A stretch of 64,000 nt of DNA, from the NCBI RefSeq assembly GCF_022846255.1, contig NZ_AP025682.1. One strand, given 5' to 3'. Below the pieces are notes generated by a model, which saw only the letters and a program-made list of their open reading frames with translations, did not search any database and was not told the origin of the DNA. Positions 59,441 to 59,680 of this stretch are shown here, one piece after another (the first letter of the stretch is position 1; every line of letters begins with the position of its first letter). Source of the stretch: Escherichia coli. Lineage in GTDB: Bacteria > Pseudomonadota > Gammaproteobacteria > Enterobacterales > Enterobacteriaceae. A program made the translations under genes and the position numbers.

Positions 59441-59466
59441 TGGGGGATTCTGTGCACGCTGTTCAT

Positions 59467-59665
59467 GCCGGATGCGGCGTGAACGCCTTATCCAGCCTAC
59501 AGGTGAGTGCTGTTTCGTAGGCATGATAAGACGCGCCTGCGTCGCATCTGGCATCGGCGCACAACTGCCAGATGCGGCGTAAACGCCTTATCCGGCCTAC
59601 ACAATCTTGCAAAATCAATATATTGCTCGATCCTCGTAGGCCTGATAAGCGAAGCGCATCAGGCA
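59467..59665. repeat. REP / BIME cluster (at least three palindromic units) between selU and ybbP
   Basis: Repeated gccggatgcggcgtgaacgccttatcc(a/g)gcctac-type units in alternating orientation. Confidence 0.8.
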
Positions 59666-59680
59666 ATCTAACGCCTGTCA

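Follow-up and report, generated by a model that had tools for sequence, protein, structure and literature searches.

The selU–ybbP junction

In the 64-kb stretch of Escherichia coli DNA analyzed here (the window), selU (mnmH; 58346–59440, plus strand), which encodes a tRNA 2-selenouridine synthase of 364 amino acids, converges on ybbP (59681–62095, minus strand), which encodes a putative ABC transporter permease of 804 amino acids. A 240-bp spacer (59441–59680) lies between the two stop codons, that of selU being a TGA at 59438–59440. The open reading frame list, the RefSeq annotation of matches, and the Pfam families AAA_SelU (selU) and FtsX (ybbP) agree with the preliminary description of this DNA, which had selU end at 59440 and ybbP at 59681. 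Its statement that the spacer holds only a REP/BIME cluster is also borne out, with four REP palindromes in alternating orientation within the 240 bp.

A fixed-spacing 38-nt REP consensus (GCCKGATGCGRCGYN6RCGYCTTATCMGGCCTAC) gave no match with up to three mismatches, because loop length differs among the y, z1, and z2 types, and a half-site search was used in its place. With up to two mismatches, the half-site CTTATCMGGCCTAC occurs 10 times in the window against an expectation of 0.46, and four of these 10 occurrences fall in the spacer, which is one of three half-site clusters (the others lie at 7637–7680 and 38144–38287). The REP units of the spacer are 29–36 nt long, end in CTAC or, if inverted, start with GTAG, and all fold as hairpins; matches to them are found at about 40 or more places per E. 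coli genome.

From selU toward ybbP, the spacer begins with a unique 26-nt leader (TGGGGGATTCTGTGCACGCTGTTCAT; 59441–59466) that is kept in CFT073, 2016C-3878, E. albertii, and a 58-bp allele described below. REP1, of the y type (GCCGGATGCGGCGTGAACGCCTTATCCAGCCTAC; 59467–59500, plus strand; predicted hairpin −15.1 kcal/mol), is separated by a 16-nt linker from REP2, an inverted z2 unit (59517–59552, minus strand; reverse complement GCCAGATGCGACGCAGGCGCGTCTTATCATGCCTAC; −12.7 kcal/mol), and a 14-nt linker leads to REP3, again of the y type (GCCAGATGCGGCGTAAACGCCTTATCCGGCCTAC; 59567–59600, plus strand; −15.1 kcal/mol). There follows a 35-nt long (L) linker of the BIME-1 type (59601–59635), kept in all alleles and in E. 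albertii, within which a candidate IHF site (AATCAATATATTG; 59613–59625) matches the IHF consensus WATCAANNNNTTR. REP4, an inverted z1 unit (59636–59664, minus strand; reverse complement GCCTGATGCGCTTCGCTTATCAGGCCTAC; −13.2 kcal/mol), and a unique 16-nt trailer (AATCTAACGCCTGTCA; 59665–59680), kept in every REP-bearing allele and in E. albertii, complete the spacer. A sub-threshold match to the Rfam family ES036/CssrF lies over the L linker region (59601–59643).

The cluster as an atypical BIME

By published definitions, BIME-1 elements consist of y, L, and z1, BIME-2 elements of y and z2 units with short linkers, and atypical elements are chimeras of the two; IHF sites are frequent in BIME-1 L linkers, and REPs are mobile or amplifiable through a REP-associated transposase, TnpA-REP, with copy numbers at one locus that differ among strains (PMC3333891). 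The order y(+), z2(−), y(+), L, z1(−) in the spacer, with types assigned by eye from the consensus sequences of Bachellier et al. and not by a formal classifier, makes the cluster an atypical BIME under these definitions: judged by sequence, it consists of a BIME-2 unit (y, short linker, z2) followed by a BIME-1 unit (y, L, z1). The cluster, which is wholly extragenic and lies between two convergent stop codons, has in common with published BIMEs (BIME-1 is also known as RIB or RIP) the y, z1, and z2 palindromes, their alternation, an L linker with an IHF consensus match, the extragenic position at convergent 3′ ends, and strain-variable copy number. We see no essential difference from these elements; the combination of BIME-2 with BIME-1 is already covered by the term atypical.

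The Rfam model naRNA4 (RF02564) matches the z2/y pair formed by REP2 and REP3 (59520–59597, minus strand) with 70 bits, above its gathering score of 59.5. We rejected the interpretation of this match as a specific sRNA gene, since the same model also matches the BIME at 38177–38254, within the 38144–38287 cluster, where it scores 75.6 bits and again exceeds the gathering score; the match in the spacer is thus a generic BIME-2 signature. The spacer's z2/y pair resembles REP325/naRNA4 in scoring above the gathering score on the minus strand, but REP325 is a six-unit array within the yjdMN operon, whereas the spacer has one such unit, placed between convergent genes. The role in nucleoid compaction that was proposed for naRNA4 is itself disputed (bioRxiv 10.64898/2026.03.23.713779).

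Comparison with K-12

In MG1655, the gene order is ybbP, rhsD, ybbC, ylbH, ybbD, ylbI, ylbG, selU, with 7,301 bp between both stop codons, in agreement with the preliminary description, which had placed the K-12 rhsD element and associated open reading frames at this position. K-12 lacks the direct selU–REP–ybbP arrangement, which the description had named as evidence against itself. The absence of an rhsD element from the junction in the window is likewise confirmed, both by the length of the spacer and by a tblastn search with K-12 RhsD (1,426 amino acids), which found no Rhs homologue in the 64 kb. An Rhs element would show a large open reading frame with a G+C-rich YD-repeat core of about 1,200 amino acids, a variable C-terminal tip, and, downstream, either an immunity gene or orphan tips; the 240-bp spacer is not such an element.

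The homology of the window to K-12 breaks off 7 nt past the selU stop codon and restarts 2 nt before that of ybbP, and the whole REP cluster (59448–59678 in the window) is missing from rhsD-carrying strains. Neither the K-12 element, nor the 17 kb surrounding it, nor the Hcp islands described below contain a REP half-site, and neither rhsD junction has a REP; similarity searches of the spacer against the rhsD element and the Hcp islands returned only chance matches of 10–13 nt. The lack of REPs in the K-12 element and at its junctions, the lack of similarity to the spacer, and the limits of homology together indicate that the RhsD element replaced the entire cluster and did not insert into it or split it. 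The idea that the REP cluster marks the site is therefore correct in one sense, as a mark of the ancestral empty state (see below), and incorrect in another, as the cluster is gone in rhsD strains and does not mark the point of rhsD insertion.

Two further observations concern the rhsD-bearing arrangement. K-12 ylbG (L001, 12646–13017), which directly adjoins selU and is annotated in RefSeq as a putative DNA-binding regulator, looks, judging by its translation, like an N-terminal fragment of an IS481-like transposase. In addition, a 4-kb contig labelled 'uncultured Alistipes sp.' (L041) carries an E. coli selU (98% amino acid identity) beside a RhsD C-terminal region with 97.7% amino acid identity to K-12 RhsD. 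Very probably this contig belongs to E. coli and was binned wrongly.

Alleles at the site among complete E. coli genomes

We took a census of 5,420–5,426 complete E. coli genomes, with the selU–ybbP distance measured by means of a synthetic, REP-free 2-kb query made up of 1 kb from each side of the spacer. The K-12 ybbP–rhsD junction is present in 2,858 genomes (~53%), selU and ybbP lie at most 1.5 kb apart with no island in 1,907 (~35%), and an Hcp-Tle1/DUF2931 island occupies the site in 573 of 5,426 (~11%), so that about 98% of genomes fall into one of these three main classes. A toxin island such as rhsD is thus found at the site in about two thirds of E. coli strains. The exact four-REP allele is present in 443 of the 1,907 island-free genomes, or about 8% of all complete genomes.

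The alleles range widely in size. The shortest, of 58 bp, has no REP (GU2018_CL13), a 140-bp allele has two in the order y, L, z1 (CFT073), and the 240-bp allele with four is found in the window, 2016C-3878, CE10, and TUM13066. Alleles of 604, 711, or 913 bp combine a dinQ-like type I toxin module with two or six REPs, and the number of REPs at the locus runs from zero (GU2018_CL13) through two (CFT073) and four (the window) to six (E189). The largest alleles are the RhsD element (7.3 kb) and an island (4.2 kb) that encodes a fusion of Hcp to a Tle1-like phospholipase and two or three DUF2931 proteins.

The Hcp island has a low GC content (0.39–0.40), and its Hcp protein, fused to the Tle1-like phospholipase domain, is 666–667 amino acids long. 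We located it in E. coli TUM2826 (L089, 16309–20530), in E. whittamii (L007, 1071–4654), where its junctions are the same as in E. coli, and in L010 (11090–12052). In its presence the final codons of selU are rewritten and no REP remains. In the 58-bp allele of GU2018_CL13 (L088, 1201–1258), 28 nt from the start of the ancestral spacer, made up of the 26-nt leader and the first 2 nt of REP1, are joined to the last 30 nt of the Hcp-Tle1 island, which are identical to TUM2826. By this composition it is a genuine deletion scar, and it served as a positive control for recognizing such scars. It was present in roughly two of 21 sampled island-free genomes, and no parent allele with the leader still beside an Hcp island was found.

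Many island-free alleles contain a module of about 475 bp that is annotated 'DinQ', carries a 27-amino-acid open reading frame (MKTFLDKVLIVLKALIALLELIRQFIE), and is flanked by a duplicated terminator hairpin (AAAAAAACCGACATGACAGTCGGTTT); it is a dinQ paralogue outside the canonical dinQ locus. Such alleles were seen at L004 (2041–2751), L008 (3235–3946), L005 (13303–14215), and L087 (1201–1804), and at L006 (11096–11328) the terminator hairpin is single-copy and the module is absent; FCI48 has a 107-bp internal deletion. In Z1323HEC0067 (L090, 3123–4169), the spacer holds an intact IS481-family transposase alongside the dinQ-like module.

With several unrelated cassettes (RhsD, Hcp-Tle1/DUF2931, the dinQ-like module, and IS481) in one spacer, and with flanking core genes that are unusually divergent and contain a recombination tract (see below), the site resembles chromosomal integration hotspots flanked by recombining core genes. 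It is unlike them in having no integrase, tRNA, or att site, and in that its cassettes abut both stop codons.

Ancestry of the four-REP spacer

The preliminary description had left two options for the REP cluster, an ancestral empty site and the scar of a deletion, and comparison with other species argues for the first. In E. albertii NBRC 107761 (the type strain), selU and ybbP are convergent with a 245-bp spacer that is collinear with that of the window: its four REPs correspond in order, orientation, and type, and leader, linkers, L motif, and trailer are shared as well. The two spacers are about 10% diverged, and the flanking genes are 87–92% identical. Because the divergence of the spacer is similar to that of its flanks and unique sequence is common to both, the spacers are best regarded as orthologous and not as the product of recent transfer; an ancient transfer between E. 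coli and E. albertii is formally possible, because the comparison is with one E. albertii genome. Orthology in turn implies that the four-REP allele is older than the split between the two species and hence an ancestral empty site.

Beyond this pair, outgroups were surveyed by scanning one genome per species for SelU relatives, followed by tblastn. No Rhs lies between the convergent genes in E. albertii (~245 bp apart), in a divergent species representative labelled 'E. coli' (~236 bp), or in Buttiauxella (~66 bp) and Kosakonia (~340 bp); no REP was found in the Buttiauxella and Kosakonia spacers. In Kluyvera and Citrobacter, selU and ybbP are 1.4–4 kb apart, again with no Rhs; a porin gene, and in some cases also an ABC transporter, occupies the interval. 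These Rhs-free arrangements in more distant Enterobacteriaceae, together with the collinear E. albertii spacer, support a model in which the four-REP spacer is the ancestral, unoccupied allele and predates the E. coli/E. albertii split. Overall, we consider it highly probable that the interval is a chimeric BIME representing the ancestral unoccupied allele of a multi-allelic site, which in other E. coli was replaced, extended, or altered in copy number.

Recombination around the junction and alternative histories

The junction lies at the center of a recombination tract of about 4.35 kb (58450–62800) that includes selU, the spacer, ybbP, and ybbA and is visible in the density of SNPs relative to TUM13066, the nearest complete genome, which also has the four-REP allele. 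Outside the tract the window and TUM13066 differ by 0–2 SNPs per 200 bp, whereas inside it most intervals have 4–14, for a divergence of about 3.4%. Among 5,420 complete E. coli genomes, none matches the REP-free 2-kb query, which was taken from within the tract, at more than 97.2% identity, whereas the neighboring all region reaches about 99% in several genomes and allA/allS are 99.9–100% identical to TUM13066. The divergence from an otherwise nearly identical genome, combined with the lack of a closer match among complete genomes, suggests import from a poorly sampled lineage. As the tract is centered on the junction, exchange through the flanking genes is directly visible here, and recombination in these genes is likely to be the route by which island-bearing and island-free alleles move. 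Divergence in the flanks is also high elsewhere: over the final 242 bp of ybbP it reaches 7.4% within E. coli (K-12 versus ST131).

The same tract raises the question of whether the lineage of the window once carried an island and lost it when recombination imported a segment with an empty site. The position of the 4.35-kb tract on the site, its 3.4% divergence, and the contrast between its ceiling of 97.2% identity to any complete genome and the ~99% and 99.9–100% identities of the all region and allA/allS would all be expected under such a reversion by allelic replacement. However, the closest relatives outside the tract are also without rhsD, TUM13066 having the four-REP allele and Z1323HEC0067 the dinQ-like module with IS481, and either of two lineages could have been the recipient of the import. 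The exchange thus looks like one of an empty allele for another, and we regard reversion as unlikely. With these nearest relatives rhsD-free, there is no sign that the lineage of the window ever had rhsD, although this falls short of proof.

A deletion scar, in which a K-12-type rhsD was lost by internal deletion and the REP cluster is what it left behind, is a much less probable origin still. Several observations make the idea reasonable in principle: rhsD is the majority state in E. coli (~53%), Jackson et al. infer rhs losses in some strains (PMC2935791), and a true scar is known at this very locus in the 58-bp allele, which retains the last 30 nt of the Hcp island. The spacer of the window, however, has no sequence from the rhsD element or the Hcp island and has lost none of the ancestral spacer, since its E. 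albertii counterpart is collinear over the full length, base for base. Nor could the cluster derive from the K-12 element, as neither the element nor its junctions hold a REP and the spacer and the element have nothing in common, and the nearest relatives are likewise rhs-free. We therefore consider the question of empty site or scar to be settled in favor of the ancestral empty site.

Finally, separate REP invasions of a REP-free spacer in E. coli and E. albertii, which would remove the signal of ancestry and for which one could cite the mobility and amplification of REPs via TnpA-REP with strain-variable copy number (PMC3333891) and the REP-free spacers of Buttiauxella and Kosakonia, are hardly credible, as they would not reproduce the order, orientation, and type of the REPs together with the unique leader, linkers, L linker, and trailer that both species share.

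Allele dynamics and possible functions

A simple scheme can be proposed for the turnover of alleles. Homologous recombination in the flanking genes would carry island and empty alleles from one lineage to another, and REP copy number would shift when the direct y repeats, which are 100 bp apart, recombine or undergo slippage; the copy series of two, four, and six fits such recombination or slippage. TnpA-REP may also contribute to this series (discussed in PMC3333891). A more ambitious possibility is that the junction is a long-lived, multi-allelic 'toxin cassette' site, at which haplotypes are kept by balancing or frequency-dependent selection and shuffled by short-tract exchange, and at which the REP null allele dates from before speciation. 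The ancient haplotypes would then be the REP-only null, RhsD, Hcp-Tle1/DUF2931, and the dinQ-like type I toxin. Flanking divergence of about 7% within E. coli and the sharing of alleles with E. albertii and E. whittamii are consistent with this proposal, which we put forward tentatively and consider less likely than not.

As to function, a scan for promoters and terminators found no site in the spacer, including none resembling an intrinsic terminator, and the spacer RNA folds better than shuffled sequence on both strands (z = −5.6 for the plus strand and −6.5 for the minus strand). Given the lack of an intrinsic terminator, the cluster can be read as the common 3′ region of the two convergent transcripts, selU and ybbP. 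By analogy with other REP hairpins, for which such activities are reported, its hairpins would block 3′-to-5′ exonucleases and could act as leaky, partly Rho-dependent bidirectional terminators, and the L linker may bind IHF. On the ybbP mRNA, REP4 starts 16 nt downstream of the stop codon. Liang, Rudd and Deutscher (2015) reportedly linked REPs that lie no more than 15 nt from a stop codon to translational down-regulation; the spacing here is borderline, and we make no such claim for ybbP. What a REP does reportedly depends on its context. [quoted passage not shown]

Relation to known rhs polymorphism

The junction is a real and ordinary BIME at a known polymorphic rhs locus, and the difference between strains is already published. 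Hill and colleagues (Hill et al. 1995, Genetics) are said to have described Rhs-free loci in ECOR strains. Jackson et al. 2009 treat the locus as rhs 'position 3' (ybbA to ybbB); in their account one group of pathogenic strains lacks it, and it is inferred to have arisen after that group split off, with later losses (PMC2935791). Similarly, Archer et al. 2011 report that strain Crooks has no rhs at position 3 (PMC3032704). The selU–ybbP junction is this same locus (ybbA/ybbP to ybbB/selU), and the window represents an rhs-absent strain as described there. Both papers give presence or absence and are not known to describe the sequence of the empty site (PMC2935791, PMC3032704). A text search of the literature for Rhs together with ybbP and REP returned nothing relevant. 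What our analysis adds to these papers is the anatomy of the REPs, the orthology with E. albertii, and the allele frequencies. Taken alone, the junction carries little weight, as a REP/BIME between convergent genes is common and rhs presence and absence has been catalogued since 2009, but the locus might be useful as a compact, clearly delimited case in which to study toxin-cassette swapping via flanking homologous recombination.

Other RNA features of the window

Elsewhere in the window, the minus strand carries two tandem matches to Rfam sok, the antitoxin RNA of hok/sok, at a spacing of about 500 bp (2631–2787 and 3135–3291; 84 and 86 bits). A tRNA gene is located at 24831–24904 (minus strand), and the Rfam sRNA family STnc480 has a match at 46417–46483 (minus strand, 87 bits).
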